Shown here piece after piece: positions 269 through 38,811 of a stretch of DNA of 64,000 nt (within the stretch, counting starts at the first letter, position 1; the number at the start of each line of letters is the position of its first letter). Below the pieces are notes generated by a model. It was not told where the DNA came from. It searched no databases and was given only the letters and a program-made list of their open reading frames with translations. The stretch lies in sequence record NC_024142.2, one strand, 5' to 3'. Both the position numbers and the translations under genes were made by a program. This DNA comes from Escherichia phage Bp4.

Positions 269-469
269 GATGATAGCTCCAATAGTTGATGATAGGACGA
301 CATGTCCATAACATGCGGAGCATGTGTAACGTGTAAGGTGGGGTAGGGTAGTGGCTACACCGTCAACATACCGGGGGGGATGGTTGAGTGTAAGGGTGTA
401 GCCCCAGCCACACCACTGTAGCCATACATAACTATGCTACTTTTCATATGCAAAAATATGATAGCTATC

Positions 470-15352: not shown

Positions 15353-15697
15353 ATGAGTAAAGAATCAACAATCGCAGGACTGGAACATCGACTGGAAGCT
15401 GCTAAAGGTGCAGTTGCACACGCAGAGGATGTACGTAAACTTCTGGAGAATCCACTGTTCCGTAAAGTAATCCTTCGACAGTTCTGTGTAGAAGATTGTG
15501 CACGTTACGTGCAGGAGTCTGGTGACCCACTGCTTGAACCGAATAACCGTGCAGATGCACTTAACATGGCTCAAGCTGCTGGTCACTTACGTCGTTGGCT
15601 CGACCTCGCCATTCGTATGGGTGAAAATGAAGCTGACGTTATTCTTCAGGTAGAAGAAGAACTCGATGCAGTTCGTGCTGAACCCGAAGACGAATAA
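15353..15697 (+). CDS. hypothetical head-module protein
   Basis: 114-aa ORF between portal and scaffold-like gene. Confidence 0.5.
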   Translation: MSKESTIAGLEHRLEAAKGAVAHAEDVRKLLENPLFRKVILRQFCVEDCARYVQESGDPLLEPNNRADALNMAQAAGHLRRWLDLAIRMGENEADVILQVEEELDAVRAEPEDE

Positions 15698-15716
15698 TTA
15701 ACCGGAGATATTTCCT

Positions 15717-16937: not shown

Positions 16938-16953
16938 ACAGGAATGAGATGAT

Positions 16954-18156: not shown

Positions 18157-18174
18157 TAGTCCGAAATAAAACAA

Positions 18175-18200
18175 GGGGGACATAAGTCCCCCTCTTAATA
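18175..18200 (+). terminator. terminator hairpin after capsid gene
   Basis: GGGGGAC-ATAA-GTCCCCC then TCTTAATAAAA. Confidence 0.55.
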
Positions 18201-18223
18201 AAACTAAATGAACCACAGGAAAT

Positions 18224-18865
18224 ATGAACATGAGCATTAACGATAAACCGACCACTGACGTAGAAGTGAACGTACAGGGCAACGAAGATACCGTTAACGA
18301 TATTGCAATGCCTAGCGAACTTGAAGTTCTTAAGCAACGTGCAACGTTGATGAATATTAAGTTCTCTAACAACATTTCCGTTGAAAAGCTTCGTGAGAAG
18401 ATTGAAGCTGCACAAGTAAAAGATGAACCAGTAGTAGAAGAAGCTGCTGTTAACCCATTGGGTGCTAAGCAGGAAACTGGTGTTAAGAAGATGACCCTGG
18501 GTCAGAAGATTCGTGCAGAACAGACTCGACTGATTCGTGTACGTATCCAGAACCTTGACCCTAAGAAGAAAGACCTGCCGGGTGAAATTATCACCGTAGC
18601 TAACGAATATATGGGTACTGTACGTAAGTTTGTTCCGTTCGGTGAAGTAACCGACAATGGTTATCATATTCCGTACTGTATCTACGAGTTCCTTAAAGAA
18701 CGTAAGTTCATTAACATTACTACTCGTAAAGGTAAGAATGGCTTACCGGACATTCGTGCAACAGAAGCACGTGAGTTCTCCATTGAAGTACTGCCTCCGT
18801 TGACTGAAGCTGAATTGGCTCAGCTGGCTCAAGCACAGATTGCTGCTGGTAGCCTTAACGATTAA
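18224..18865 (+). CDS. virion structural protein (hypothetical)
   Basis: 213-aa ORF after the capsid gene. Confidence 0.5.
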   Translation: MNMSINDKPTTDVEVNVQGNEDTVNDIAMPSELEVLKQRATLMNIKFSNNISVEKLREKIEAAQVKDEPVVEEAAVNPLGAKQETGVKKMTLGQKIRAEQTRLIRVRIQNLDPKKKDLPGEIITVANEYMGTVRKFVPFGEVTDNGYHIPYCIYEFLKERKFINITTRKGKNGLPDIRATEAREFSIEVLPPLTEAELAQLAQAQIAAGSLND

Positions 18866-18885
18866 CGTATAAGCTACAGTTCAAC

Positions 18886-18924
18886 ACGGCTCACTGGGGT
18901 AACTCCGTGGGCCGTTTCTTTTTG
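18886..18924 (+). terminator. intrinsic terminator
   Basis: 9-bp stem ACGGCTCAC/GTGGGCCGT followed by TTCTTTTTG. Confidence 0.55.
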
Positions 18925-18935
18925 AACCAAGAGGA

Positions 18936-19778
18936 ATGATTATGTCTTGTTCTGCTGAGGTAGAAGCTAACCGACTCCTAGAAGAGTTAACTAAGGGTGA
19001 TGACTTTACCCTTCCTGATATTGATATGTCTGGTCCTGAATGGGATATCCCTGGTGGAGATGATTCTCCAATCTTTGGGGCTATTACTAAAATAACCAAT
19101 GAATCTCTTACTACCCGTGAAGTAGGAGGCAGTGGTACGTTTGATGCATTAATGGAATCTGCTCACAATCACCTTAAAGCTGAGTTTAAAGCTAACCGTA
19201 TTACTGGTGGTGAATATACCAAAGCATACATTGCTATGATGGAATCATGCATGAGTAATGCTGTTCAGTTCTTACTTGGACGTGACCAGGCATACTGGGC
19301 TGCTGCTATGGCACAGATTCAGGCAGTTACTGCTCGTGTTCAACTGGCTACTTCTAAGGCTCAGTTTGTACTGGCTAAGATTCAGGCATTGTCTGCTAAG
19401 AGTGAATACGCTCTTACTAAGATGAAGATTGCTACTGAGTCTGAGACGTATTGTGCTGCATTGTTTAATGCTAATCAGATGTTACCTCAACAGCTTAAGC
19501 TGATTACTGAGCAGACCGAAGCACAGCGTGCACAGACACTAGATACCCGTAGTGATGGTGCTACTGTTACTGGTTCTGTGGGTAAACAGAAAGAGTTGTA
19601 CTCTCAACAGATTACTTCTTACCAACGTGATGCAGAAGTTAAAGCATCTAAGTTGTTTACTGATGCATGGATTACACAGAAGACTATTGATGAAGGCTTG
19701 AATCCTCCTAATGGTTTCACTAACGCAAGTATTGATACCATTTTGACCAAGCTGAAGACTAACAACGGGCTGAACTAA
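18936..19778 (+). CDS. virion structural protein (hypothetical)
   Basis: 280-aa ORF with RBS GAGGAA. Confidence 0.5.
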
Positions 19779-19779
19779 T

Positions 19780-20916
19780 ATGGGCTTATTCAGTGGGAAG
19801 ACTAAAGTATACGTAGCATCCTCTGTCTATAACATGGCAGGGGATATACACAAACGTCCTAACTATATGAAGACTGTAGTCATCGGTAACATTGTTTCCA
19901 ATACAGGATTCACTATGGCAGACACTATCTCTGATAGTTATCTGAATGGACCTGGTATTCGTATGCGATTGTTCTCCAGCTGGAGTAAGAACCACTATGA
20001 TTCAGAAGTTGGTATGGCTGGTTCTTCGTTGGGTGTATTGGCTAAGATTGACCCTACTGTTATAGAGGGTCAAATTACACCACCTGCTGGAGAGTCTGTC
20101 TATGTTCAGGCAGCAGAAATTGGCTTTGCTGACTTTGAGCAATGGTGTGACCAATATCTTTATGAAAATGCTCCTAGTCGAATCATGGAACGATTCGACA
20201 TAGACATCAATGAAGATACTAATGAAATTACTATGACCTCCCTGGATGGTGGTTCTACTATTAAATTCACACCTACTAACTTTGAACCAGGTGCTTTGTA
20301 TCTCTATGCTGATTACTCATTCTATAAGTCCCCGTCTATCAATCCACCGGTAGAGGGACCGACTACTGTCTATGATGATGAGGATGACTTACCTTCTACT
20401 TTGTTATGGACTACTGTTTCAAGTGATACAACAGCTAATACAACTAATCTCACTAAGACTATACAGACTCATTCTGTTTATTCTGATGGTAGACCAGATG
20501 AAGACAGTACTGTCACCGAACCAAGTGTAGATAACTGGAACTCTTACATTAAGGTTTACCGTAGAGGATTCACTGAAAAACCTGATGACGTAACTGTAGT
20601 TGTATCTGACAGGGTAATGACTCATAAAAAGTTTGGTGAGATTCAATCCAGTACTTCTGTAACTACCAATGTAGTTGATATAGGTGGTGGTGTTACTCGT
20701 ACCGATACAATCACTACAACCACAGAGACACTGGTTCGTAAGTATTCCTCCCAGACTACTCGTACAGATACAGAGATGACTGCTGTTGGTACACCTAAGC
20801 TGCTTATCTATAAGCAGAACTCTGGTAACGTTGCACTAGACTCACTGTTCGATACCGAAGCTACTGATAACCGATTCTACCATTCATTCCAATCAGGAAT
20901 GATAAGCAATGGGTAG
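19780..20916 (+). CDS. virion structural protein (hypothetical)
   Basis: 378-aa Ser/Thr-rich ORF. Confidence 0.5.
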   Translation: MGLFSGKTKVYVASSVYNMAGDIHKRPNYMKTVVIGNIVSNTGFTMADTISDSYLNGPGIRMRLFSSWSKNHYDSEVGMAGSSLGVLAKIDPTVIEGQITPPAGESVYVQAAEIGFADFEQWCDQYLYENAPSRIMERFDIDINEDTNEITMTSLDGGSTIKFTPTNFEPGALYLYADYSFYKSPSINPPVEGPTTVYDDEDDLPSTLLWTTVSSDTTANTTNLTKTIQTHSVYSDGRPDEDSTVTEPSVDNWNSYIKVYRRGFTEKPDDVTVVVSDRVMTHKKFGEIQSSTSVTTNVVDIGGGVTRTDTITTTTETLVRKYSSQTTRTDTEMTAVGTPKLLIYKQNSGNVALDSLFDTEATDNRFYHSFQSGMISNG

Positions 20917-22446: not shown

Positions 22447-22890
22447 ATGGATTTGTCATTCTTAACAGGCAACCAAACCCCACAGCCAGCTGCTATGTCT
22501 TGGATGTCTAATAACAATCAGAATTTTAATACCCCAGCTATGAACTACAATCCGGGTGCAGCTATTGGTATGAATGCAGGTACAGGAGTAGCCTCCCCTA
22601 CTTCCTTCTTGTCTGGTTCAGCTAATCAGTTGGGTATGAATGTACCCACCTTCCAACTAGGACTCGGTGCACTTGGTTCCTTAGCTGGTATCTATAGTGG
22701 TTTCCAGGCTAACAAGTTAGCCAAAGACCAGCTGAACTTTACTAAGAGTGTTACTAACACTAACCTGAATAACCAGATTAAGTCTTATAACACTGCACTG
22801 GAAGACCGTGCTCGTAGCCGTGCTACAGCAGAAAATCGTGACCAGTCTTCGGCTGATGCTTATATTGCAGCCAATAAACTAACCCGTTAA
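22447..22890 (+). CDS. virion protein (hypothetical)
   Basis: ATG at 22447 preceded by AACAGGAGAA. Confidence 0.5.
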   Translation: MDLSFLTGNQTPQPAAMSWMSNNNQNFNTPAMNYNPGAAIGMNAGTGVASPTSFLSGSANQLGMNVPTFQLGLGALGSLAGIYSGFQANKLAKDQLNFTKSVTNTNLNNQIKSYNTALEDRARSRATAENRDQSSADAYIAANKLTR

Positions 22891-22902: not shown

Positions 22903-23769
22903 ATGGCTCAGATAACGTGGAGAAATGTTGATGCACCTAACTTCTCTGGAGTTGGTGACAGCATTCGCACATTTGGTAGCATGATTGGTAACGCCACCTC
23001 CGGCTTAAGTGATGCACTGGGTAATTTCCAGAACGCTGCCAAGCAGGAGGCTGGCAATGCCGTCATGATGAATGCTATGCAGTACCAAGACCCGAATGAG
23101 TACCGTAATGCTTTGGCATCTGGTGCACTGTTTCAGGGGGTTGATCCTTCACTGGTAAATCAGCGTACCCTCCAAAACCTGGATGAACGAGCAGGTACAT
23201 TACTGACACAACAAGGACAGCAGGGAACCAATGACTACATTGCTTATCGCTTTGGTCGTTTACAGGATACTAACACTGCATTAGATAATGCTTCCCCGGC
23301 TATTCGTTTACTGTCTGAGGCTTATCAGTCCGGTGACCAGAACCGTATTAATGCTGCATTAAGTCAGACCCGTGATGCACTGTCTGCACTCCCTGCTGAC
23401 CAACAACTGGAGATGATGGGTCGTCTACAAGGTCAGGGTGGTCAGGCTATTAATCAGGCACAGAATCGTTTTGATTTAGGTGTTGCTCAACGTAATGATG
23501 CTGACAGTCAGGCAGCTATGGGTGTAATGTCACAGATTACCCGTGGTGCTGAGAACCTAATGATGCCCGTCTGTTGGCAGAAGCATACAGTAAGAACTTG
23601 TCCCCAGTTGCACAGGCACGTTTACAGAGTTTACTGGCTAGTACTTACCGGTGTATACGGCAATGGCGTAGGTGCTGCGTCTGCTCCTGGTACTGCTGGT
23701 ACTCGTCAGGGTTCCCCTTACGATGTTACTTACCAGTTTGCCGGTACATCTACCCTATTACTCAAATGA
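22903..23769 (+). CDS. internal virion protein (hypothetical); about 30 codons read out of frame between 23555 and 23650
   Basis: Open frame, but an alternate frame reads protein-like (EPNDARLLAEAYSKNLSPVAQARLQSLLASTY) where the annotated frame reads Cys/Trp/His-rich. Confidence 0.45.
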   Translation: MAQITWRNVDAPNFSGVGDSIRTFGSMIGNATSGLSDALGNFQNAAKQEAGNAVMMNAMQYQDPNEYRNALASGALFQGVDPSLVNQRTLQNLDERAGTLLTQQGQQGTNDYIAYRFGRLQDTNTALDNASPAIRLLSEAYQSGDQNRINAALSQTRDALSALPADQQLEMMGRLQGQGGQAINQAQNRFDLGVAQRNDADSQAAMGVMSQITRGAENLMMPVCWQKHTVRTCPQLHRHVYRVYWLVLTGVYGNGVGAASAPGTAGTRQGSPYDVTYQFAGTSTLLLK

Positions 23770-24029
23770 GTATTGGTGATGTAATTAAACACCAGGATGG
23801 TATGAAGTCGAATCAAGGTGCTTCACCTGTTGGTGCATTCCAGATTAACCAAGCTACTCTGAAAGACTTCGCTCCCAAAGTTCTTGGTTCAGATTGGCAA
23901 AGCCAGCCTCTTTCTCCTGAGAACCAGGATAAGATTGGTAAGGCTATCTTCGAGTCTCGTAAGAACGGTAACCTTAAAGATACTTGGGCTGCTCTGCCTA
24001 ACTCTACCCAGGTGCTTATAAGGATATGA
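23766..24029 (+). CDS. hypothetical protein, ATGA-coupled to neighbours
   Basis: ATG overlaps the upstream stop (ATGA); 87 aa. Confidence 0.4.
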   Translation: MSIGDVIKHQDGMKSNQGASPVGAFQINQATLKDFAPKVLGSDWQSQPLSPENQDKIGKAIFESRKNGNLKDTWAALPNSTQVLIRI

Positions 24030-24862
24030 CTTGGGAACAGATTAAACCTGTTATTGCTCAAGCTGAAGTAGGGGCTGACCCACTTGCTATGGTTCAGAAT
24101 AATCAAGGTAATCAGGCAGTATCTACTCTGGCTCAGGGTATGATTGGTACTCGTTCTATGCAGGATAACACTGGTAGTCTTAACACAGACTTCCTTGGTA
24201 CTGTCACTGATAATACCCCAGTAGGTGAGATTGCTAATCGTTTGCTGGAGGGTGATTTTAAAGGTGCTGACCGTAACTGGGTACTGAATCGACTGAACGA
24301 TATTTCTCAACGTGGGAATATGTCACCTGCTATGGCTGCTGCTGTTATGCAACGTGCACAGACTGGTGTACCAGAGGGTTATATTAGTCGTGCTATTGAT
24401 GCAGTTAATCCATTCATTACCAATGAAGCAGGTAATGGTATGCGTCTTAATGACCGTCAGGTAGAACAGTTAATCGAGGGTGTGAAACGGGGTGAACCAC
24501 TGGAAGGTAGTGTTCGTAACCTTGGTCGTGCTCAAGCTATGCAGAATATTCAGGCGGCACAGACTGCATATGATGCTGCTGTAGCTGCACTGGCAAATAC
24601 CCAGAATAAGATTAACACCGGACAAAGCGGTCTTACTGCTCTTTTACCTGCACGTCAGGAGGCTGTTACTAAAGCTGCTGCAATGCTCCAAGCTGCACAG
24701 GCACAAGTACAGGCTGACCCAGCTAACCTGGCTCCAAGAGGTTTCCAGTCACAGGCTAGTGTGGATAGAGCACGAGCCAAGGAAGATGAAGAACGTGCTG
24801 CACGGTACTTACGTCAGGCACAAGGACTGCCTGAGTATATGCAACCCAGACAAAATCGGTAA
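24026..24862 (+). CDS. internal virion protein (hypothetical)
   Basis: 278-aa Ala/Gln-rich ORF, ATGA-coupled. Confidence 0.5.
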   Translation: MTWEQIKPVIAQAEVGADPLAMVQNNQGNQAVSTLAQGMIGTRSMQDNTGSLNTDFLGTVTDNTPVGEIANRLLEGDFKGADRNWVLNRLNDISQRGNMSPAMAAAVMQRAQTGVPEGYISRAIDAVNPFITNEAGNGMRLNDRQVEQLIEGVKRGEPLEGSVRNLGRAQAMQNIQAAQTAYDAAVAALANTQNKINTGQSGLTALLPARQEAVTKAAAMLQAAQAQVQADPANLAPRGFQSQASVDRARAKEDEERAARYLRQAQGLPEYMQPRQNR

Positions 24863-24872
24863 TACTAATAAA

Positions 24873-24895
24873 AGCCCTACGGGGCTTTTTCTTTA
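24873..24895 (+). terminator. intrinsic terminator upstream of the giant ORF
   Basis: AGCCC-TACG-GGGCT followed by TTTTTCTTT. Confidence 0.6.
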
Positions 24896-24955: not shown

Positions 24956-27900
24956 ATGTCAACATTTGACCGTCTGGCAGGTTTCGCAGACAGCATCACT
25001 AATGCTAAGCAAGTCGATGTCTCTACTGCAACCTCTCAGAAGCAAGCTGCACAAGGGCAAAGCCCTTTCCAATTAACCCCAGAGAATGCTTACAATCTCC
25101 AGACTGGACGAGTAGGTAATCTTGGAATCGGTGCATTCGAACCAGGTTCACTTCAGGCAGATTTCACTCAAGCCTCCCCATTAGAAATCATTAATAAGTA
25201 CGGTAATGAGCAAGGTTTACAAATTCTTAATAGCCGAGCTAATGCTGCTGATGTTGTACGTCAGGACTTATCTAAACAACGTACTAACGCAGAAGCATTT
25301 GGCGATACTCTTTCTGGTGTTGGTCTTGGTGTTGCTAATACCCTTGGGGGCATTGCTGCTCTTGGTACAGGCTTGGTCAATGATAATGCCGGGGCATCCA
25401 TTGCTTCCGGTCTTGACTGGTTGAATAAAGGTGTACACAACCTACAGTCTGATGCACTGAATGCTCGTCGTAATGTAGTACAGAACCAGAACGTAATATC
25501 TGCTCAAGAGAATGAGAAACTCTATAAGCAAGATATTGCTAAAGGAGAAAGTGAACTCGTTGCTTCTCTGTCTCGTATTGGACGAGATGCCTATGATTCT
25601 GTTGCTAACACCCTGTCTAATGACATGGCTGCTACAGATGGCCTGGCTGAAGGTGTTGGTTCATTCTTTACTGGCGGTCCACTTATCCGTGGTGTATCTG
25701 CACTTGGTAAAGTAATGGTAGGTGGTGATAAAGCTGTTAAGGGTATTACCTTAGCTGCTGAATTAGGTTATCGTCCTGCACGTATTGCACAGACTGCTGG
25801 TCGTGTTGCTGCACCTGCTATAGCAATTGGTGGTATGGAAGCTGGTGGTGCATACCAACAGACTGCTAATGAAATTATGGAAATGCCATTCAGTGAACTG
25901 GCTGCTAAATCTCCTGTATACCAACAGCATATTAAAGACGGTCTGTCTCCTGAAGAAGCACGTCGCCAGACTGCATCTGAAACAGGTATCACTGCTGCTG
26001 GCTTAACTGCTCCAGTTGCTGCTCTTACTGCTCCACTGGTATCCAAGTTTGAACTTAACCCACTTAAGGTAGGTTCACTGGCTGGTGCTGGTTCTAACAT
26101 GCTGCGTGAGACTGTAGAAGAAGGTATCCAGTCTGGTACAAGTCAGTTTGCACAAAACAAGGCAATTCAGGGCAATGTAGATGCTGAGCGTGATTTGCTT
26201 AAAGGTGTGGGTGAACAAACTGGTCTGGGTGCATTGTATGGCTTCGGTTCTGCTGGAGTTGCTCAAGCTCCTGGTGCAACTGTTAAGGCTGCTGGTGCTG
26301 CCGTTGGTCCTGCTGTACGTACTACCCTGGCTGGTGCTTCTTTGGCTGGTAAGGCACTAGCAAAAGTAGCTTCACCTATTACTAACATCCTGGTTCAACG
26401 TGGGGAAGAAGTTGCTAAGCGTAATGAACAAGCATCCCCCGTATCTGATGCTACGGTTAACGCTGCTGCACAAGAAGCTACTGCTCAGGCAGAACAAGCT
26501 CAAGCAACTGTTCAGGAAGCAGTGGATGCAATGGATATTTCTCCAGAAGAGAAAGCTGCTGCTACCCAGTATGCTGCTGACTTAACTCAGGCAATGAAGT
26601 TTGACCCGGTAGAATTGGAACAAACTAACCCAGCAATCCGTGAAGCTGTTTCTGGTTCCACTAACCGTGTAGAAGCTATTCAGAAGATGGCTGACTTGGT
26701 TAATACTGCCGAAGACCCTAACGTTCAAATGGAAGCTGCAATCCAGATGTATGACAATATCATGTCTATGGATAGCTTCATTAACCGTGACCCGGGTGCT
26801 TTGGCTAATCTGGAACAAGGTTCCCCTGCTGCTGCAATCGTAGACCAATTCTCCGGCCTGATGGCTAACGTACAGAATACCCCTAAAGTACTCCGTGCAT
26901 TTCGTGCCATCCATTCCATGATTCAGGAACAGGCTGAAGCGGGTAAGCTGAAAGCTACTGAAGAAGCTAATCAAGCCCAAGCAAACAACATTGCTATGGC
27001 TGCTGATGTATCTCCAGAAGTGCTGGATGCAGATTCAGTGAACATGGTTCTGAAACATGCAAGTGAAGGTAAGATTACACTGGGGAATCGTCAACGTGCT
27101 GCCCTGCAATCTGCTGCTGCCTTATTACAGGGTGCACGAGAGTTCGACGCTAAAGCAGAAGAACTAGGCTTACGTCCTCAAGATATTGTTAGTAAACAGA
27201 TTAAAACCGATGAGTCTCGTTCTAATGAAGGACAGTACTCTGCGTTGCAACATGCGAAACGCATTCGTTCTGCGTATAACTCTGGTAACTTCGATTTGGC
27301 CTCCGCTTATCTGAGCGATTTTATGAAGTTCGCCCAGCACATGCAGAATAAGGTCGGAGCGTTGAATGAGCATCTGATTTCGGGGAATGCGGATAAGAAT
27401 AAGTCTGTTCATTATCAGGCTCTCTCGCCTTCCCGTGAATGGGTACGTAGTCGTACTGGCCTCGGTGTCAATCCTTACGATACCAAGTCTGTTAAGTTTG
27501 CCCAGCAAGTAGCACTGGAAGCTAAGACCGTAGCTGACATTGCTAACGCACTTGCTACGGCTTACCCGGAGCTTAATGTTTCTCATGTGAAAGTTACCTC
27601 GTTGGATTCACGTCTGAACAAGCCAGCTGCCCAGGTAGTTAAAGAGTTCCGTCAAGGTGGTCTTGATGCCACTCAGTCTCAACAGACTAATGAACCAGTG
27701 AATCAGGTTGATGAAACTCCTGCACTAGTGCAAGAGGACACCACTACTGTACAGCCTAAAGATAAACTAGTGGTAGAAAATAAGACTGCTCCTACTAAAG
27801 AGACTAGTCCAAAAGCAGAAGAAGTCTCTACTACTGAATCTGAAAGAGATGCTTATGTGAAAGAAAATACTATTTCACAGGAAATTCTTAATAAGAATGG

Positions 27901-30900
27901 TGACCGTAGAGAAAGCCCTTGGTTGTTTGCTGATGGTACTGTGGTTGGTTCTAATGGCGACCATATCAGCCTGTCCGACGTATTTGGGCATGATGGTTAT
28001 CGTGATATGTCTCTGGATACTGGTGCTATTCGCTCTACCTTCTATAAAGGTAGTGAGCAACCATTTGTATCTCTGCAACTGTTTGATAATCAGAAACTGA
28101 CTGCTGAACAATTCAATACTGTTCAATCTTTCGTTGAAGCAAACAATGCACTGATTCAGGTTGGTGTAGATACGTCTGGGCGTAATACCAATAATGTTGA
28201 GAAGGAAGAAGTATCACTAGCTCAACTGAAAGCAGACTATACCGTCGGTGGTAAACCTCTATCGGAAATGGAAACAGTGTTCCCTGTTTATAACAATGAC
28301 AAGACACCGAACCAGTTCATTAAATCATTCTCTCTTCCAGAAGAACCTAAGTCTCGTACCATTGGTTCCGAATCTCCTTTGACTGATGTTAAGAAAGCAC
28401 TGTCTTCTGCTGCTCGCTTTGAAGCATTTACTCAAAAAGAAAATAACGCTCTCACAAGTGATGTGATTAAGCGTTACCAGGACTTATTTGAGTTTGGTGA
28501 AACTCTGAAGACTACTCTGTCTGACCGTCTGGCTAAGTTCCTTGCTAACAAGAACGTTGGTAAACGTTTTGCGGAAGGTACTGAGGCTAACCGTTGGGTA
28601 GGTGGTAAGTTACTTAACATCGTAGAGAAAGATGGTGACACCTTTAAGTTCAATGACCAGCTATTAGAAACTGCTGTACTTGCTGGTCTGCAATGGCGAT
28701 TGACTGCTACACAGAATGCTGCTGTTAAAGACATGAAAGACGTAGCTGCTATTACTGGTGTGGAAGCATCTCTGCTACCAGAAGGTATTCTGGCTGACTT
28801 CGAGAATGCTCAGACCCTGGTTGAAGCTACTAACTCACTAGCTCAAAAGATTGAATCCTATTGGGGTTTGAATCGTAATCCTAATGCACCTTTGGGGTAT
28901 ACCAAGGGTATCCCAATGGCAATGGCTACAGAGATTCTGTCTTCCCTTATTGAGATGGGTGAAGTTAAAGAGTCCATGTTAGATGTGTCTGAGATTGACC
29001 CAGAATCTAATAAGACTGTTGGTCTGTATACCATTGAGAAGCTGGATGATAACGATGCCATTAATAAATTCCCTACTGCTATTGAGGAAACTGTCCTTTT
29101 AGAACCAGTAGAGAAATTGTATCTGGGTGATGACATTCCTTCCGTGGCTCAAACTCAGTTACGTAACCCGGCTGTTAAGAATACCCCGGAACAGAAAGCT
29201 GCTCTCAAAGCAGAACAAGCTACTGAGTTTCGTGTACATATGCCGATGGTTAATTTCTATGAAGCATTGGGTCGTGACAACATTCTGGAGTTAATGGGTG
29301 CTGGTGCTCTTAATCCAGAATTGCTGAATGTGAATACTGCTAAGTCTCTGGAAGGTAAAAACCTGTCCGTGTCCATGGCGTATGATTCCTTGTTTGGTGT
29401 AATCAATCAAATTAAGGAACAGGAGAATGGACTGGATACACCTATTCACTATGGCTACAACATGACCCGTGTAGGTCGTATGCAGATGCTTGGTAAGAAC
29501 AACCCACAGTCCAGCAAACTGGTACGTGAAGCAATCTTACCAACCTTCTCTACCATCGACTTGAGTAATGAAAACAGTCAAACGTTCTCTGACTTCCAGT
29601 TAGGTCTGGCTCAGGCATTGGGCATCAAAGTTCATAAAATGTCCCGTGAAGTTATGTCGGATGAGCTGACTAAAGCTCTGGAAGGTAAATTGAAACCTGC
29701 CGTTGATATGATGGTCGAGTTTGATAAGTCTGGTCACTTACCTGCTGATGCAGTGGATATTCTGAAGACTTCCTTGGGGAATGATAAATCATTCGTAGCT
29801 CTTATGGCCCTGATGGAATATGCCCGTTACCTGAATAGTGATGATCGTGCCAACTTTAATACCCCACTGTACGTTGAAGCCGATGGTGTAACCAATGGAC
29901 CAATTAACGCAATGGTATTAATGACTGGTGGTAAGTTTACTTCAGACTGGATTAAGAATACTGCTAAGGGTGGTTTGTTCTTTGGTAAAGCTGGCAAGAC
30001 TATGAACGAACACCATTCGCACGAGGATAGTGTTGACCTGTATGAAGCATCCACTAATAGTCTGCAACAGGCACTGAATGAATTACGTAATAATTACCGT
30101 AACAACGTTCCTGTTACGAATCAGATGAAGCATCTTCAGAAGTTAATGGACCTGTTCATTAAAGACTTCAATCTTAATGAAGATGGTACTCTGGACCTGA
30201 AACGTGGTATCGCTAAAAACCCACTGACCATTACCATCTATGGTTCTGGTGCTCGTGGTATTGCTGGCAAAATGGTAAGTGCAATTACTGATACCATCTA
30301 CGAACGCTTCAGTGACGTTCTACAAGCCCGTGCTGCTGACCCTAGCATTTCCCCAGCTATGGCTATGTTTGGTAAGGAGGCTGCGTCTGAGGCTGATGCT
30401 CAGGCTATGCTGGATACTTTCCTTACTTCTATGGAAGCACTAACTGGTAATGTTCCGGTTATGCGTAAAGGTGAGTTGTCTATTCAGCAGGTAGATGGTG
30501 CTCTGACTGGTAAGTTAGACCCTCAGAAGTTTACTGTATCCGGTAATGCTCTGAAGAACTTACAAGAGAACATGCTTCATCTGTTCGTTGAACCAATGCG
30601 TACTGGTATCCGAAATACCGTGGGTGAAGGTCTGATGTACTCTACTGAGAACTTGCAGAAAGCTACCCAGATTCAATCTCTGGTTCTGCAAGACATGTTC
30701 CAGCAACGTGTTCAGGAGAAACTGGCAGAAAAAGAAAAAGACCCAACATGGAAGAAGGGTGATTTCTTAACACAGAAAGAACTGAATGAAATCCAGGCTT
30801 CATTATCTCCACTGGCTCCAATGATTGAGACTGGTTCACAGACTTTCTACATTGCTGGTAGTGAGAATACTGATGTTGCTAACCAAGTATTGGCTACCAA

Positions 30901-33900
30901 CTTAGATGACCGTATGCGTGTGCCAATGAGCATCTATGCTCCTTCACAGGCAGGTGTAGCAGGTATTCCATTTATGACCATCGGTACAGGTGATGGCATG
31001 ATGATGCAGACCCTTTCTACTATGAAAGGTGCTCCGAAGAATACCCTGAAAATCTTTGATGGTATGAACATTGGTATTAATGACATTACTGATGCAAGCC
31101 GTAAAGCTAATGAGGCTGTATATACTTCCTGGCAGGGTAACCCTATCAAGAATGTTTATGACTCCTTTGCTAAGTTCATGAAGAACGTAGACTTCAGCAA
31201 ACTGTCTGATGAAACCAAACAAGCTATCGCTAAATCTGCACTGGAATACGACCAACGTGAGGGTGCTACTGATGACCTGTTACGTGTTGGTGCTGAACAG
31301 ATTGAACGTAATCTGCGTAACATTGCTCTGGGTGTGGATATTCGTCATAAGGTAATGGACCAGGTACAGGTCACTGTTGACCAGATGGCTGCTGTTGGTG
31401 CTCCTTATGTGAACAACGGTAAAATCTCTCTGGAAGGTCTGACTGTAGACCAGCAAGTAGCTAAGCTGAACGAACTGTTTGATGCTGAATTAAACAAGCG
31501 TCGTGATGCAGTACGTGCTGCTAAAGCAGAACCAGTGAAAGAAGTGCCAGCAATGGAACAGGTCGGTCGTGTACTGAAGTCTGGTGTACGTCTGCTGTCT
31601 AATGCTGCCATTACTAAACTGGCTAAAGAGATGTCCCCTGAACAACAAGCAGTACTGAAAGAAATACAGAAATCTCTTGCTGCTAAAGACTATAAGGTTG
31701 TTTATGGTACGCCTTCTCAACTGGATGCCTATGCTATTGAGAAGAACATTACTCGTCCAGCACCGGAAGATATTGAAGCTGCTGAAGCAGGTAATGCATA
31801 TGGCTGGACTAACTTTGAAGATAAAACCATCTACTTAGTTACCCCTTCCTTAGAGACTCTGGTTCATGAATTGGTACATGCCTCTACTTTTGAATCTGTA
31901 CTAGCTCACTACGAGGGTACTCCTAACGAAGCAGTCCAGAATATTGAAGACCTGATGAACCAGTTCCGTGCTCTTGATGTTAAGAATGAATCTCCGGCAG
32001 TACGTGAAGCATATGCCGATGCACTCAATACCATTAATGGCCACTTGTCCAATGGCTTTATTGAACCAGCAATGGCTAAAGCTGCTGCACTGAATGAGTA
32101 CATGGCTTGGGGTTTAACTAACCGTGAACTTATAAGTAAGCAGAAGAAAACCACTGCACTTAAAACTATGGTTCAGGCTGTATATGAAGCAATCAAACGT
32201 CTGGTATTCGGACGTAAGAAAGCTCCTGCTAATGCAGATGATATGTTCTCTGGCTTACTGTTTAACTCTGCTGTAGTAATGCGTGGGCAGGCTCCTACTG
32301 CTGCTGTAGCCAAAGATACTACCTTGTTCCATAACAAAGCATACGGTGACAATACTCGTCTGGAAGAGCTAGGGAAAACCTTCGATAAGCTGATTACTAA
32401 CTACATTGGTTCAGAACCAGTACAGCAAGTAATTCGTAAAGGTAAGTTCTCTGATGCAGTAGTAAAAGCAACTAAAGTAACTCGTGATGTTCAGGCTCAT
32501 GGCTTCACCATGAATATGCAGGAACAGCGTCTCTTCACTAACATTGTTGCTGCACTAGCTACTGAGGCTGCTATTAACCCTGCTGCTATGGCTCGTGCAC
32601 AGGAATACTACACGCATGTTACTAAGAACCTGACTGTTGAAGCGTTCATGGCTGACCCGGATAGTACTAACCCTGCTGACCGTTACTATGCACAGCAGAA
32701 GTTCGATACCATCATGGGTGCTAATAACATTGAGTTTGATGCACAGGGTCGTTCTTCCTTACTACCTACCTTTGTTGGTCTGGTAATGGTAAGTGAAGAA
32801 GTACGTAAGGTGCTGGCTGATATTTCTGTTATGAAAGCAGATAAAAAATCTGGCAATACTGTTGATGCAATGCTGACTAACATCGGTACTGCTGCAATGG
32901 CTAGTCTGAATGCTCGTGTAGCAGGTGATACTAAAGCCACTAACGTACAGGAAGGTATGGATGCACTGGCTCAGACAATCATGCAGACCAGTCTTAACGC
33001 AGAATCCTTCTATGATTCCGTTGCTACTCCTACCGGTAATGCTATCGACCGTGCTAACCAGTATTTGGTGGACTCTATTGATGCATTGTCTACCCGTGCT
33101 TTAGAAGGTGCTCGTGAAGTTGCAGCTAATACCAAGAATCCATTGGTCAAAGGTGCTGCTCATGCTGCACAACTGGTAGCTGCTATTGCTACAGAGAAGA
33201 ATGGTGCAATCGTAGCCGAAGGTGTTATGGCTGCAATGAACCAGGGTAAAGTATGGCAACCTTTCCATGACCTGGTTAATGACATAATTGGACGTACTAA
33301 GAGCAATGCTTCTGTATATGATTTGATTAAAGCAGTACGAGCACAAGTGCAGGCTGACCGTCAACAGTTCCGTGAACACTTGCCTACCACTATCGCATCC
33401 AAGTTCAGCCGTAAACTGACTAATGATGAGTGGAAAGCAATGCATACCGGTATGGGTAAAACTGACTTAGCTGTTCTGCGTGACACTATGTCTTTGGATG
33501 AAATCCGTGACCTGCTGACTGACCAGAAGAATGTTGACCGTGAGGTTAATAAACTGGAAGCAGATTTGCAGAAACAAGCAGGACGTAACTGGCCCCTGAT
33601 TAACCGTAAATCTAAGCAACTGGCTCAGTATATGATTAACGGTACAGTCGGTAATAACCTGCTGCGTAATGCTACTGCAATTTCTCGTTTACTGGGTGAA
33701 CGTAAGACTACACGTTCTGTTGTAGATGTAGCTCAGCTGGATAAACTGATTACCCTGTATGCACTGGAAGCAATGAGTAAGACTGACCGTGAGGTGTTAT
33801 CTTCACTGGCTCAGACAGAAGTTGAAGGCATGGACTTTGCTACTTCTTACCTGGTTGGTCAGCGTAAAGACGAAATGGCTAAAGCCAAGTCTGATAGCCG

Positions 33901-35668
33901 TGCAACCTTGAACCAGTACAAAGGATACATCCCAACTGAGAACAAACAGGGTGTTAACCTGATTGTTGCTGAAGATAATCAGTTTGCTGATTTGATTGAG
34001 AAATCCTATGTACGTCTTGGTACTTATCAGGGTAGCTCTGCTAACCGGGGTCCAGCACGTAGTTACTACTTTGCACCGGTACAGGCACAGGCTCCGTTCT
34101 CACAAGGTATCCTACAGAACGTTCGAAATACTGCTGGTGGTGTAGACCTTGGTACAGGCTTTACGATGGGAACCATGGTAGCTGGTCGTATTACTGACAA
34201 GCCTTCCGTAGACCGTATCACTAAAGCACTGGCTCGTGGTGAACGTGGCAATGAACCACTGCTGCCTGTATATGATGCTAATGGTAATGTAGTTGCTTAT
34301 GAGCAATCTATTGACCCTAACATGCTGAAGCACATTGAGGGTGAGAATCATCTTGCTCGTGCAATCGGTGTATGGCGTGGTCGTCAGGTGGAAGAAGCTA
34401 AGGCTCAGCGTTTCAACGATATGCTAATTGAGAACCTGCATAGCATGTATGAGAACGACATTAAGATGTCTGCTTCTAATAAGTCCCAGTACGTTAACCT
34501 TCTTGGTTCTAAACTGGACCCAGTAACTGCCGATGCCCTTAAGCTGATGAACAGTGAAACTCGTCAGAAAGCAGAAAGTCTCTTTGGTCCAGGTGAATTG
34601 TGGGTGCGTCGTGACATGCTTAATGATGCTCTGGGTTATCGTGCAGCTTCTGTAGGAGATGCCTGGTCTGGTAATTCTCGTTGGTCACCAGAAACACTGG
34701 ATACCTTCAAGAAAGCTATGTTGGGTGTATTCGGCAACCGTGCCTATAAGTATGTAATGGGTGGTGAGAACCTGGTTCAGAACTTAGTTAAAGAAGCTAA
34801 GACCCTGATTGTAGTTAAGTCAGTAGTTGTACCTGCTGTTAACTTCCTGGCTAACCTTTACCAGATGGTTGCTCGTGGTGTACCTGTTAAGAACATTGCT
34901 AAGAGCATCCCACAAAAAACTGCTGAGATTAACCAGTATCTGAAATCTCGTCTGCGTCAGGTAGATGCAGAAGCAGAATTACGTGCAGCTACTAACCCGA
35001 ACCAGATTCGTAAACTCAAGGCTGAGATTCAGTCCATCTCTGATAGCCATAAACGTTTGAGTATCTGGCCTCTGTTGGAAGCTGGTGAGTTCTCTTCAAT
35101 TGCAGATGCTGGTATTGGCCGTGATGACATCCTGATTACTGAAGGTAAACTCCACGAATACATGGAAAAGCTGGCTGATAAGCTGCCTAAGTCTGTTCGT
35201 AACGCAGGTCGCTATGCACTTATCACTAAGGATACTGCTCTCTTCCAGGGTATTCAGAAGACGGTTGAGTACTCTGACTTTATTGCTAAAGCAATCATCT
35301 ATGATGAACTGACTCAGCGTAAAGGTAAGACTCGTGAAGAAGCACTGGGGCGTGTAACGGAAGAGTTCATTAACTATGACCGTCTGCCTGGTCGATTCCG
35401 TGGGTATATGGAAAGTGTTGGTTTGATGTGGTTCTACAACTTTAAGATTCGTTCTGCAAAAGTTGCAGTGTCCATGATTCGTAATAACCCAGTACATGCT
35501 GCTATGGCTATGTTGGCTCCAACCCCTACCATGTTTGGTAACGTTGGTCTTCCTATTCAGGACAACATCTTTAGTATTGCTGCACAAGGCAATCTTGGTT
35601 ACTCCTTTGGTTTCGGTCAAGGCTTACGTGCCCACAACCTGAACCCTTGGCTCAACCTTACTAACTAA
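24956..35668 (+). CDS. giant virion-encapsidated RNA polymerase (N4 vRNAP-like)
   Basis: Single uninterrupted ~3570-aa ORF in the virion module; size and position are diagnostic of N4-like phages; ATG at 24956 with RBS AGGAAAC. Confidence 0.8.
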   Translation: MSTFDRLAGFADSITNAKQVDVSTATSQKQAAQGQSPFQLTPENAYNLQTGRVGNLGIGAFEPGSLQADFTQASPLEIINKYGNEQGLQILNSRANAADVVRQDLSKQRTNAEAFGDTLSGVGLGVANTLGGIAALGTGLVNDNAGASIASGLDWLNKGVHNLQSDALNARRNVVQNQNVISAQENEKLYKQDIAKGESELVASLSRIGRDAYDSVANTLSNDMAATDGLAEGVGSFFTGGPLIRGVSALGKVMVGGDKAVKGITLAAELGYRPARIAQTAGRVAAPAIAIGGMEAGGAYQQTANEIMEMPFSELAAKSPVYQQHIKDGLSPEEARRQTASETGITAAGLTAPVAALTAPLVSKFELNPLKVGSLAGAGSNMLRETVEEGIQSGTSQFAQNKAIQGNVDAERDLLKGVGEQTGLGALYGFGSAGVAQAPGATVKAAGAAVGPAVRTTLAGASLAGKALAKVASPITNILVQRGEEVAKRNEQASPVSDATVNAAAQEATAQAEQAQATVQEAVDAMDISPEEKAAATQYAADLTQAMKFDPVELEQTNPAIREAVSGSTNRVEAIQKMADLVNTAEDPNVQMEAAIQMYDNIMSMDSFINRDPGALANLEQGSPAAAIVDQFSGLMANVQNTPKVLRAFRAIHSMIQEQAEAGKLKATEEANQAQANNIAMAADVSPEVLDADSVNMVLKHASEGKITLGNRQRAALQSAAALLQGAREFDAKAEELGLRPQDIVSKQIKTDESRSNEGQYSALQHAKRIRSAYNSGNFDLASAYLSDFMKFAQHMQNKVGALNEHLISGNADKNKSVHYQALSPSREWVRSRTGLGVNPYDTKSVKFAQQVALEAKTVADIANALATAYPELNVSHVKVTSLDSRLNKPAAQVVKEFRQGGLDATQSQQTNEPVNQVDETPALVQEDTTTVQPKDKLVVENKTAPTKETSPKAEEVSTTESERDAYVKENTISQEILNKNGDRRESPWLFADGTVVGSNGDHISLSDVFGHDGYRDMSLDTGAIRSTFYKGSEQPFVSLQLFDNQKLTAEQFNTVQSFVEANNALIQVGVDTSGRNTNNVEKEEVSLAQLKADYTVGGKPLSEMETVFPVYNNDKTPNQFIKSFSLPEEPKSRTIGSESPLTDVKKALSSAARFEAFTQKENNALTSDVIKRYQDLFEFGETLKTTLSDRLAKFLANKNVGKRFAEGTEANRWVGGKLLNIVEKDGDTFKFNDQLLETAVLAGLQWRLTATQNAAVKDMKDVAAITGVEASLLPEGILADFENAQTLVEATNSLAQKIESYWGLNRNPNAPLGYTKGIPMAMATEILSSLIEMGEVKESMLDVSEIDPESNKTVGLYTIEKLDDNDAINKFPTAIEETVLLEPVEKLYLGDDIPSVAQTQLRNPAVKNTPEQKAALKAEQATEFRVHMPMVNFYEALGRDNILELMGAGALNPELLNVNTAKSLEGKNLSVSMAYDSLFGVINQIKEQENGLDTPIHYGYNMTRVGRMQMLGKNNPQSSKLVREAILPTFSTIDLSNENSQTFSDFQLGLAQALGIKVHKMSREVMSDELTKALEGKLKPAVDMMVEFDKSGHLPADAVDILKTSLGNDKSFVALMALMEYARYLNSDDRANFNTPLYVEADGVTNGPINAMVLMTGGKFTSDWIKNTAKGGLFFGKAGKTMNEHHSHEDSVDLYEASTNSLQQALNELRNNYRNNVPVTNQMKHLQKLMDLFIKDFNLNEDGTLDLKRGIAKNPLTITIYGSGARGIAGKMVSAITDTIYERFSDVLQARAADPSISPAMAMFGKEAASEADAQAMLDTFLTSMEALTGNVPVMRKGELSIQQVDGALTGKLDPQKFTVSGNALKNLQENMLHLFVEPMRTGIRNTVGEGLMYSTENLQKATQIQSLVLQDMFQQRVQEKLAEKEKDPTWKKGDFLTQKELNEIQASLSPLAPMIETGSQTFYIAGSENTDVANQVLATNLDDRMRVPMSIYAPSQAGVAGIPFMTIGTGDGMMMQTLSTMKGAPKNTLKIFDGMNIGINDITDASRKANEAVYTSWQGNPIKNVYDSFAKFMKNVDFSKLSDETKQAIAKSALEYDQREGATDDLLRVGAEQIERNLRNIALGVDIRHKVMDQVQVTVDQMAAVGAPYVNNGKISLEGLTVDQQVAKLNELFDAELNKRRDAVRAAKAEPVKEVPAMEQVGRVLKSGVRLLSNAAITKLAKEMSPEQQAVLKEIQKSLAAKDYKVVYGTPSQLDAYAIEKNITRPAPEDIEAAEAGNAYGWTNFEDKTIYLVTPSLETLVHELVHASTFESVLAHYEGTPNEAVQNIEDLMNQFRALDVKNESPAVREAYADALNTINGHLSNGFIEPAMAKAAALNEYMAWGLTNRELISKQKKTTALKTMVQAVYEAIKRLVFGRKKAPANADDMFSGLLFNSAVVMRGQAPTAAVAKDTTLFHNKAYGDNTRLEELGKTFDKLITNYIGSEPVQQVIRKGKFSDAVVKATKVTRDVQAHGFTMNMQEQRLFTNIVAALATEAAINPAAMARAQEYYTHVTKNLTVEAFMADPDSTNPADRYYAQQKFDTIMGANNIEFDAQGRSSLLPTFVGLVMVSEEVRKVLADISVMKADKKSGNTVDAMLTNIGTAAMASLNARVAGDTKATNVQEGMDALAQTIMQTSLNAESFYDSVATPTGNAIDRANQYLVDSIDALSTRALEGAREVAANTKNPLVKGAAHAAQLVAAIATEKNGAIVAEGVMAAMNQGKVWQPFHDLVNDIIGRTKSNASVYDLIKAVRAQVQADRQQFREHLPTTIASKFSRKLTNDEWKAMHTGMGKTDLAVLRDTMSLDEIRDLLTDQKNVDREVNKLEADLQKQAGRNWPLINRKSKQLAQYMINGTVGNNLLRNATAISRLLGERKTTRSVVDVAQLDKLITLYALEAMSKTDREVLSSLAQTEVEGMDFATSYLVGQRKDEMAKAKSDSRATLNQYKGYIPTENKQGVNLIVAEDNQFADLIEKSYVRLGTYQGSSANRGPARSYYFAPVQAQAPFSQGILQNVRNTAGGVDLGTGFTMGTMVAGRITDKPSVDRITKALARGERGNEPLLPVYDANGNVVAYEQSIDPNMLKHIEGENHLARAIGVWRGRQVEEAKAQRFNDMLIENLHSMYENDIKMSASNKSQYVNLLGSKLDPVTADALKLMNSETRQKAESLFGPGELWVRRDMLNDALGYRAASVGDAWSGNSRWSPETLDTFKKAMLGVFGNRAYKYVMGGENLVQNLVKEAKTLIVVKSVVVPAVNFLANLYQMVARGVPVKNIAKSIPQKTAEINQYLKSRLRQVDAEAELRAATNPNQIRKLKAEIQSISDSHKRLSIWPLLEAGEFSSIADAGIGRDDILITEGKLHEYMEKLADKLPKSVRNAGRYALITKDTALFQGIQKTVEYSDFIAKAIIYDELTQRKGKTREEALGRVTEEFINYDRLPGRFRGYMESVGLMWFYNFKIRSAKVAVSMIRNNPVHAAMAMLAPTPTMFGNVGLPIQDNIFSIAAQGNLGYSFGFGQGLRAHNLNPWLNLTN

Positions 35669-35675
35669 ATGAAAA

Positions 35676-35705
35676 AGCCCCTCTAATGAGGGGCTTTTAT
35701 TTTTA
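35676..35705. terminator. bidirectional intrinsic terminator
   Basis: 8-bp stem AGCCCCTC/GAGGGGCT, loop TAAT, A-run upstream and TTTTATTTTT downstream; between convergent genes. Confidence 0.75.
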
Positions 35706-36693: not shown

Positions 36694-36751
36694 TATTAGC
36701 CTCATAGAGTGGTTTGAATTTGTACTTAAGCATGATTGCGTTCATCAATAC

Positions 36752-36783
36752 TCAAATAAAAAAGTCCCTCCGAAGAGGGACTT
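36752..36783 (-). terminator. intrinsic terminator ending the tRNA-region transcript
   Basis: Minus strand stem GTCCCTC-TTCG-GAGGGAC followed by TTTTTTATTTG. Confidence 0.7.
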
Positions 36784-37009
36784 AGTAGCTTTAACGCAGC
36801 TAACGAGGCTAGGCCAGTTAACTATTACCACCGGTGCTTGTACCAGCAAACAGGATTGATAGTCCGATAATAGTTAACTGTAATTGAGCATTATAGTCTG
36901 CTCATACTCACACCGTTAGGTATGTTTTCAATAATTAGAGTGCCGGACTGTCTCACCGGCATTGTCTTTAGAGTGCAATGCAATCAGGACTATGTTCTCT
37001 ATTAATAAG

Positions 37010-37083
37010 TACCCACTACTGGATTTGAACCAGTGACCTTCCGATTATTAGTCGGTTGCTTTCCCCGTCTAAGCTAAGTGGGC
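37010..37083 (-). tRNA. tRNA, canonical cloverleaf; anticodon loop CUAAUAA, isotype uncertain
   Basis: Hand fold: acceptor GCCCACU/AGUGGGU, D-arm GCUU/AAGC, anticodon stem with one mismatch, T-arm ACUGG-UUCAAAU-CCAGU; no encoded CCA. Confidence 0.5.
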
Positions 37084-37457
37084 ATAAATGAGTGAGTCAT
37101 GCCAGACTTTAACTGGCTCCTTCTTCGCAATCCTTACATACCCCTACATAATTATTGCGTTAAGCTTATATTGTTTAAGTTTAAGTGAAGGCGTTCTTGC
37201 TGACTCATAATAGGGTGGGCGTTTGACGAATGACTAGTTCGTTACTACCCGTTTGCCATAAGTACCTGGCGACTTTGGTTTGAGGCGGGAGTCCGAGTCC
37301 TGTACAGCCTTACCGTTCACACATTGGCAGCGTATCTAGAATAGCACTTCCGGCAACTGGATTTAACTGTTACACCCCAAATCTGGTAGGGGCGTCCAGA
37401 AGTCTCATCTGGTACTTACGCCGTCGTATGGTTACGACTTACCCCCATAATCTTTCT

Positions 37458-37529
37458 AATTCAAAGTAGCACTGCTCCATGTTTGGCCTTTGAACTCCGG
37501 GATGGATTAGTGCAATGCTACTTTGAATT
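37458..37529. repeat. 14-bp perfect inverted repeat with 44-nt spacer
   Basis: AATTCAAAGTAGCA at 37458-37471 and TGCTACTTTGAATT at 37516-37529, abutting a tRNA-like 3' end. Confidence 0.6.
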
Positions 37530-37615
37530 GGTTACCAGTGAGGGATTCGAACCCCCGGTTGGAGTCTATAGCTTACCGCAGCAGCTCTCCAATCTAGCGG
37601 TGTCACACTTAGTCC
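37529..37615 (-). tRNA. tRNA-like element (T-arm, 3' acceptor strand and encoded CCA; no canonical 5' half found by eye)
   Basis: GGGGG-UUCGAAU-CCCUC then ACUGGUA-A-CCA; upstream region does not fold into D or anticodon arms. Confidence 0.3.
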
Positions 37616-37653
37616 AAACTTGAACATATCAAGCTATCTCGTGCAACTGATAA

Positions 37654-37719
37654 TTGGTTCCGGCGTCTGGACTCGAACCAGAACACTTATGCCGTGCACG
37701 ACACTAGTACCTACACCGG
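37654..37719 (-). tRNA. tRNA-like minihelix (7-bp acceptor, T-arm, CCA; about 10 nt too short for a cloverleaf)
   Basis: Acceptor UCCGGUG/CGCCGGA, T-arm UCUGG-UUCGAGU-CCAGA, A-CCA; internal 29 nt have no stems. Confidence 0.3.
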
Positions 37720-37795
37720 AATTAATTGCCAGGGATTCCACCTGGTCCATCTGTTTTTATAGTCACTCAGATATCGTCTGGACTGTAGGCATGGG

Positions 37796-37871
37796 TGGGA
37801 ATCGAACCCACAAACCATTCAGCACTGTAGCCTCACGCTCTACCTATTTGAGCTATCACACACCATTGATT
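37796..37871 (-). tRNA. tRNA-like element (canonical D-arm and T-arm; acceptor and anticodon stems not pairable)
   Basis: D-arm UAGCUCAAAUAGGUAGAGC and T-arm GUGGG-UUCGAUU-CCCAC present. Confidence 0.3.
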
Positions 37872-38156
37872 AACTCCCCGTTTCTAATACACGGACGAGG
37901 ACACTCCATGGTCGTTTGATAATCAGGACGACTCACTCCCGACTGACGCTTGGCTTATTAGGCTGCCATCAGAACAACATCATCGTTTGCATTTATGTTA
38001 TTGGTTCGTTTCTAAAAAACCGCATAATCGCTTACGAAAACTATCAAAGAGTACACTAAGCACAGGTAGCTACCCTGCCGTCTTCTCCACCTACACCGGC
38101 TACAGTGTAAACCTCCGCACGTTAGCTTAATGTACTCATTGATAGGATGTCAGTAG

Positions 38157-38226
38157 GTCGGGGGCTGGATTCGAACCAGCGAGAGAAGTAGCGACCATCT
38201 GCACATGCCTACGTGCTACCTCGACC
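38157..38226 (-). tRNA. tRNA-like element (acceptor with one mismatch, D-arm, T-arm; anticodon region 2-3 nt short)
   Basis: GUCGAGG/CCCCGAC, D-arm GCAC-GUAGGCAU-GUGC, T-arm GCUGG-UUCGAAU-CCAGC. Confidence 0.3.
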
Positions 38227-38401
38227 ATTATAATAGGAGGGAGGGGACGAGTCCTCCCTTTATACCCTATATTGCATGTAAGACCTAACAATTCGATGCT
38301 GTAGGTAGCTATGCTATCCGACATTTAACCCAGCCATATAGGGCTTATGTGATTAAAATGCTCAACATTGAGCGGTTAGTTTGATAAGGGATCTGAAGCC
38401 T

Positions 38402-38429
38402 TATCCCAAAGATACTAACCTTTGGGATA
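38402..38429. other. 10-bp stem hairpin in non-coding region
   Basis: TATCCCAAAG-ATACTAAC-CTTTGGGATA. Confidence 0.5.
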
Positions 38430-38610
38430 TAGCCTATCATTCAGAAATGGCCCCTATAGGGAGAGGCCATTGATTAACCCGAATGTTGCTTTACATTTTC
38501 TGTGATAACCCATTCTTAAAATAGTTTACCTGACGGATGGGGGCCACCCCTAGCGTCAGTGCCATACGGCAAAGATTAAGTTAAGAAAGGTTATGATAGG
38601 AGTTCCTATC

Positions 38611-38811
38611 TCAAAGGATTCTAACAGAACCCTTCACGATATTAACTACTCTTTTTAATGCTTCTACTTCACCCTCTCTATACCAAGCATATGGTACTAA
38701 GATTTTGCAGCCTTCTGATTCAATGTGAAATGCTTTCTTTCCTTCAACGGGTTCTCCACCCATGAAAGAACTAACCTTTCCATTGAGCCAGTGAATAGTA
38801 AATTTGTTCAT
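38611..38811 (-). CDS. hypothetical small protein
   Basis: 66-aa ORF (MNKFTIHWLNGK…) with upstream GAGA RBS-like element. Confidence 0.45.
   Translation of the reverse strand: MNKFTIHWLNGKVSSFMGGEPVEGKKAFHIESEGCKILVPYAWYREGEVEALKRVVNIVKGSVRIL

Follow-up and report, generated by a model that had tools for sequence, protein, structure and literature searches.

The window analysed here is a 64,000-nucleotide stretch of Escherichia phage Bp4 (sequence record NC_024142.2), and the locus of interest is one uninterrupted open reading frame on its + strand, with an ATG start, 3570 codons and a stop codon at 35666-35668 (Table 1). Although the longest mechanical ORF at the locus starts at a TTG at 24938, the ATG at 24956 is preferred because the match with N4 gp50 runs from the ATG, as the N-termini of the window protein (MSTFDRLAGFADS) and of N4 gp50 (MSVFDRLAGFADS) show; the sequence AGGA lies 9-12 nt upstream of this ATG. 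The product, at 3570 aa, falls within the range of about 3,400-3,800 aa for N4-like virion RNA polymerases (vRNAPs). By megablast the gene was found with 100% coverage in Escherichia phage PD38 (MH669274.1; Schitoviridae, Enquatrovirinae, Gamaleyavirus Bp4), with 10,712 of 10,713 bases identical and a C/T substitution at 35119 as the sole difference, and the PD38 coding sequence AXY81341.1 is annotated "virion RNA polymerase". PD38 was the sole record in the phage collection to reach a match of at least 99%. It was also found in 56 further records at a coverage-wide similarity of at least 90%. The gene is therefore already known, as an ordinary annotated vRNAP copy in an already sequenced phage type.

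Labels given to the orthologues in GenBank vary. The gene is mislabelled 'DNA polymerase' in the records of PD205, HK2, U1G, PBM-2/3 and UE-M6 and 'gram positive anchor domain protein' in ECBP1 (JX415535), and in pSb-1 (KF620435) it is split into three 'hypothetical proteins'.

Table 1. Coordinates of the vRNAP gene, its domains and motifs, neighbouring features, and single-base deletions relative to PD38. N4 numbers of catalytic residues follow mini-vRNAP numbering as given in PMC2784036.
Feature	Nucleotides	Residues	Strand	Basis
vRNAP-type early promoter, P1-like	306..324		+ (template strand)	CCATAA, 5-bp stem CATGC/GCATG, loop GGA
gp52 homologue	22447..22890		+	58% identity to N4 gp52; coordinates mapped from PD38
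gp51 homologue	22903..24862		+	PD38 version 49% identical to N4 gp51; three ORFs here via 5 deleted bases
Upstream terminator-like hairpin	24870..24889		.	Between gp51 homologue and vRNAP; 8-bp stem, -12 kcal/mol, z -3.7, then T-run
vRNAP gene (N4 gp50 orthologue)	24956..35668		+	ORF; PD38 CDS with 1 mismatch; full-length N4 match
N-terminal domain	24956..27658	1-~901	+	60.7% identity to N4 residues 1-906
Extra folded domain in NTD-Pol linker	27908..28255	985-1100 (~116 aa)	+	Absent from N4; AF2 model
Polymerase (mini-vRNAP) domain	28307..31522	1118-2189	+	phmmer to 2po4/3c2p/3q0a; four Pfam domains
Promoter -11G contacts (N4 mini-vRNAP R119, W129)	28565..28597	R1204, W1214	+	Conserved in alignment
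vRNAP_dom_2		1412-1527		Pfam
T/DxxGR arginine (N4 R424)	29477..29479	R1508	+	Context MTRVGRMQMLG
vRNAP_plug		1544-1625		Pfam
Motif A catalytic aspartate (N4 D559)	29882..29884	D1643	+	Context LYVEADGVTNG
N4_RNAP_helical		1703-1919		Pfam
Motif B (N4 R666, K670, Y678)	30203..30241	R1750, K1754, Y1762	+	Context KRGIAKNPLTITIYG
vRNAP_dom		2001-2145		Pfam
Motif C catalytic aspartate (N4 D951)	31058..31060	D2035	+	Context TLKIFDGMNIG
C-terminal domain	31562..35665	2203-3570	+	63-71% identity to N4 CTD C1/C2; covered by PDB 11fw/9pnr
HExxH motif HELVH, CTD-C1	31865..31879	2304-2308	+	N4 HELVH at 2228
Bidirectional terminator hairpin	35673..35698		.	11-bp stem, -19.6 / -18.5 kcal/mol on the two strands, z -6, T-run
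Deletion	1023			vs PD38
Deletion, tail fibre gene	7416			vs PD38
Deletion, gp53-like gene	20880			vs PD38
Deletions, gp51 homologue	23556, 23650 (two bases), 23753, 24007			vs PD38; 5 bases in 452 bp, densest
Deletion, T-run of upstream terminator	24886			vs PD38
Deletion, primase homologue	43606			vs PD38
Deletions, DNA polymerase	46732, 47109, 48660			vs PD38
Deletions, rIIA	53886, 55318			vs PD38

The vRNAP gene comes after structural genes that share its strand, and a strand switch follows it at about 35.7 kb; both GC skew and gene orientation flip just past it, which makes it the gene that ends the + strand block. The gene order gp52-gp51-gp50 is syntenic with N4, with vRNAP closing the late/virion operon. 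In N4, gp52 is the periplasmic tunnel and gp51 the outer-membrane complex, and both are ejected ahead of vRNAP (PMC13434306). Two G+C-rich hairpins followed by T-runs bracket the gene, the T-run of the upstream one being a base shorter than in PD38. The downstream hairpin sits where two transcription units converge, is strong on both strands and therefore could act in both directions; PhAPEC5 (KF192075.1) has an annotated terminator at the corresponding site. Flanking genes and terminators are shared with PD38. A preliminary description of this DNA, made from the letters alone, had spoken of a single intact 10.7-kb ORF of ~3570 aa beside virion genes and flanked by strong terminators, and each of these points agrees with what was found. 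A scan for the sigma-70 consensus in the 66-bp spacer that precedes the ATG gave no convincing promoter, a result that says little because N4 late promoters are weak and are activated by SSB.

The same description had noted that the vRNAP gene stayed intact while several replication genes carry frameshifts, and had taken the errors to be localised rather than uniform. Comparison of the whole window with PD38 revealed 36 single-base deletions at 34 sites, all outside the vRNAP gene, with no insertions and 4 substitutions; 34 of the 36 deleted bases fall within PD38 homopolymer runs of 3-8, and the density of homopolymer deletions is about 0.56 per kb. No deletion site lies inside 24956-35668, where 5.7 would be expected if the sites were uniform (P about 0.002). 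With homopolymer runs of at least 3 as the base, the probability is about 0.007, and with runs of at least 5, in which the gene is target-poor (9 of 102), it is about 0.07. The interval 8444-20880 (12.4 kb), which includes the portal and coat genes among others, is just as free of deletions, and two deletion-free stretches of 11-12 kb have a probability of about 1e-4 under uniformity. The localisation of the errors thus stands, and DNA polymerase, the primase homologue and rIIA are indeed hit, as are several small ORFs that are split; however, virion genes are hit as well (tail fibre, gp53-like and gp51), and the deletions are clustered, but not by gene function.

This pattern is most likely a sequencing or assembly error (base-calling, uneven polishing or coverage) rather than biology, because deletions that come without insertions and are bound to homopolymers destroy essential genes; there is therefore nothing special about vRNAP in this respect. 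That the deletions might instead be real mutations of a decaying or defective phage, in which selection has preserved only vRNAP intact, would draw on the deletion-free 10.7 kb and its low probability under uniformity, both overall and for runs of at least 3. Such a history is nevertheless very unlikely, since single-base deletions alone, nearly all of them in homopolymer runs, are a base-calling signature, a genome with DNA polymerase, primase and gp51 broken is not viable as written, the equally clean interval 8444-20880 deprives vRNAP of any special standing, and long runs are rarer in the vRNAP gene to begin with.

Two further loci of the window, both on the - strand, were recorded. The interval 36705-38650 (~2 kb) holds no ORF of at least 70 aa and no annotated CDS in PD38, and it contains four of the homopolymer deletions; N4 has a similar gap of 1.5 kb between gp47 and gp48. 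Within it, 37010-37083 is a solid tRNA (Rfam, 64.8 bits; called by ARAGORN as Ile, anticodon aat), and 37785-37863 and 38155-38226 are tRNA calls by ARAGORN alone. At 44820-45317, between exonuclease-like and gp41-like replication genes, lies an ORF whose annotation in PD38 is homing endonuclease; in the equivalent interval of N4 no gene bears that annotation.

The vRNAP protein was compared with N4 both by phmmer search and end to end. Searches of PDB sequences with phmmer gave E = 0 to the full-length N4 vRNAP (11gp, 9pnq-9pnw; 3500 aa) over query residues 1-966 and 1118-3569, and E = 0 to the crystallised N4 mini-vRNAP (2po4, 3c2p, 3q0a) over 1118-2189. End-to-end alignment with N4 gp50 (YP_950528.1, from NC_008720) showed 67% identity overall, with 60.7% in the N-terminal domain (NTD), 71.6% in the polymerase domain and 63% and 71% in parts C1 and C2 of the C-terminal domain (CTD). 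Four vRNAP-specific Pfam domains (PF21624, PF21894, PF21769, PF21867) were found with scores of 94-337 bits (cutoff 27) and E values from 6e-27 to 5e-101. The protein contains no cysteine in its 3570 residues, as in N4, for which the absence has been noted (PMC2784036). The proposal that this is a virion RNA polymerase-like gene, the signature of N4-type phages, was thereby supported, and it passed its suggested check, the alignment of the central ~1100 residues to the N4 mini-vRNAP, in which polymerase motifs T/DxxGR, A, B and C are all present; a central domain lacking such motifs, the outcome named beforehand as refuting it, was not what was observed.

The catalytic residues of N4, in mini-vRNAP numbering, are given as R424, K670, Y678, D559 and D951 in PMC2784036, citing Kazmierczak et al. 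2002. In the alignment, the equivalents of all five are retained in a local context identical to N4, and K437, R440 and R666 are also conserved. Arg119 and Trp129, which in N4 read the -11G of the hairpin promoter (PMC13492108), are likewise kept. On either side of the polymerase lie domains with known roles in N4: the NTD is membrane-associating and needed for injection, and the CTD is autoinhibitory and needed for encapsidation (PMC13434306, PMC13492108). The HExxH of CTD-C1 belongs to a zincin-like subdomain (PMC5512222, PMC13434306). Judged by sequence, the protein has every defining feature of the N4-like vRNAP family that can be tested in this way.

A matching hairpin promoter for the enzyme lies at 306-324, at the far-left end of the window, ahead of the first early ORF (268 downwards, - strand) and syntenic with the hairpin that precedes gp1 in N4 (P1). 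Its architecture is the same as that of N4 P2 (CCAAAA-GAAGC-GGA-GCTTC) and P3 (CCAAAA-GCTGC-GGA-GCAGC). In the first 5 kb of PD38, the template strand has three GCGGAGC hairpins where 0.53 would be expected, and these precede the gp1-, gp2- and RNAP1-like genes, a placement as in N4; the other two PD38 promoters (record positions about 567 and 4723) lie outside the window. With this hairpin and the conserved vRNAP, enzyme and cognate promoters are therefore both present.

Taken with the full-length homology, the conservation of the catalytic and promoter-contact residues examined, the cognate promoter hairpin and the synteny, the gene product is almost certainly the N4 gp50 orthologue, a putatively virion-encapsidated, single-subunit, T7-like DNA-dependent RNA polymerase of a Gamaleyavirus (G7C/Bp4-type) coliphage essentially identical to PD38. 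No evidence against orthology with gp50 was found in this analysis. The alternative, a giant virion protein, polyvalent or structural, whose RNA polymerase activity has been lost, has no specific support beyond the placing of N4-like vRNAPs in the polyvalent class (PMC5512222) and the extra non-polymerase domain described below, and it is extremely unlikely given catalytic residues and local motifs all identical to N4, a polymerase domain conserved at the level stated above and cognate hairpin promoters. For the gp50 orthologue, packaging, ejection, activity and autoinhibition would follow the scheme worked out for N4. The protein would be made late, with its gene closing the virion operon, and it would be packaged into the head in a few copies, a step requiring the CTD. 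At infection it would be ejected after gp52 and gp51 with its domains loosely linked, as beads on a string (PMC13434306, PMC13492108), and the NTD would remain anchored at the membrane. The Pol domain would then bind promoters that supercoiled phage DNA extrudes as hairpins (5-bp stem, GGA loop, with -11G contacted via R1204 and W1214) and transcribe the early genes, the CTD presumably keeping the enzyme autoinhibited until promoter binding (PMC13434306, PMC13492108).

Several known systems may be set beside the window protein. N4 gp50 shares with it the NTD, the T7-like Pol and a CTD with HExxH, the absence of cysteines, the position as final gene of the late operon, behind gp52/gp51, and hairpin promoters with a GGA loop; it differs in that the window protein is 70 aa longer, a difference concentrated in linker 1, where N4 has ~100 low-complexity residues and the window protein an added folded domain of ~116 aa. 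T7-like single-subunit RNA polymerases share motifs T/DxxGR, A, B and C, verified here, and, from the N4 literature, the right-hand fold. The window protein and N4-type vRNAPs are, however, 3-4x larger, and by analogy with N4 would be virion-packaged and would recognise their promoter as a DNA hairpin and not as a duplex (PMC13492108). Large polyvalent proteins, known from phages and conjugative elements (e.g., the P1 DarB-like methylase-helicase), are alike in being giant, multidomain, encoded beside virion genes and delivered with DNA (Iyer et al. 2017, PMC5512222). The window vRNAP has the corresponding features, namely a zincin-like HExxH domain, a virion gene neighbourhood and the linker insert, which is common to LPD38, LPD39, SLT and MTase-helicase proteins; the polyvalent proteins that carry the insert differ from it in having no RNAP module.

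The insert lies in the linker between NTD and Pol. Residues ~967-1117 are the sole part of the vRNAP that does not align with N4 by phmmer, and in the alignment the protein is ~97 aa longer than N4 at linker 1. The N4 linker, residues 907-1006, consists of ~100 low-complexity residues joining NTD and Pol that are invisible by cryo-EM (PMC13434306). For the insert, an AlphaFold2 (AF2) prediction from a 19-sequence alignment gave pLDDT 91.2 and pTM 0.85, a confident prediction of a folded domain; a single-sequence model of residues 913-1155 was unusable (pLDDT 44.5), and the alignment-based model was used instead. Its invariant residues are S-P-x-L, G, D-H, R and Q. Comparison with Pfam (E up to 10) and PHROGs found no family, and the subset of the 40 LPDs that Pfam contains gave no match at the same threshold. 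Iyer et al. 2017, who class N4-like vRNAPs as polyvalent proteins, name ART, lysozyme and PBECR as accessory domains, and the insert is not among the vRNAP accessory domains named there (PMC5512222).

The distribution of the insert is narrow. In 50,697 phage records searched by tblastn it was found only in Gamaleyavirus vRNAPs (27 records, 92-100% identity), and an HMMER scan of 1.84 billion representative proteins returned just 21 relatives. Some of them are fragments of vRNAPs; others are metagenomic proteins of giant size with SLT transglycosylase, ResIII/helicase, methyltransferase, ddrB-ParB, LPD22, LPD38 or LPD39 domains, which correspond to the DarB-like polyvalent proteins of Iyer et al. 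2017 (PMC5512222); the polyvalent-protein matches are all metagenomic, with 61-69% identity. One relative is a standalone protein of 166 aa, and a very divergent vRNAP (P0011, 23% identical elsewhere) has the domain at the same position ahead of the polymerase. Seen by carrier, the domain occurs in Gamaleyavirus vRNAPs and one or more very divergent vRNAPs, in P22/SU10-like phages as part of DarB-like polyvalent proteins, and in small proteins that stand alone. One polyvalent relative (P0004) is 61% identical to the window vRNAP over 136 aa, with no similarity detectable outside the insert, which suggests a fairly recent domain exchange; its gene lies downstream of virion genes on a contig that also has P22-type antirepressor and Arc genes.

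A metagenome contig of a P22/SU10-like temperate phage (L006, ERZ22349082 NODE_43) encodes at 10001-19762, directly 3' of virion genes, a 3253-aa polyvalent protein with ddrB-ParB, the adenine-MTase motif NPPF and LPD39, which resembles the window vRNAP only in the linker insert domain.

The insert is a real but minor variant feature of Gamaleyavirus. A bolder reading, put forward tentatively and regarded as rather unlikely, is that it may be an undescribed, horizontally exchanged domain of virion-injected proteins and more than a passive filler of the linker, serving as an extra effector during the first minutes of infection (for instance in counter-defence or in the handling of DNA/RNA).

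In summary, the vRNAP gene is a textbook hallmark of Schitoviridae and serves here as a confident taxonomic anchor, placing the window as a Gamaleyavirus genome almost identical to PD38. The analysis also carries a warning that homopolymer deletions in the source assembly fragment real genes, namely those for DNA polymerase, primase, rIIA, gp51 and the tail fibre. As the sole residual novelty, the linker insert is a small lead: N4 structures of 2026 gave rise to a beads-on-a-string ejection model with a disordered linker of ~100 residues (PMC13434306), and this genus has an extra folded bead common to DarB-like injected proteins. Comparison with the N4 linker would help to test what the tail channel lets pass and whether extra effectors are carried on vRNAPs.
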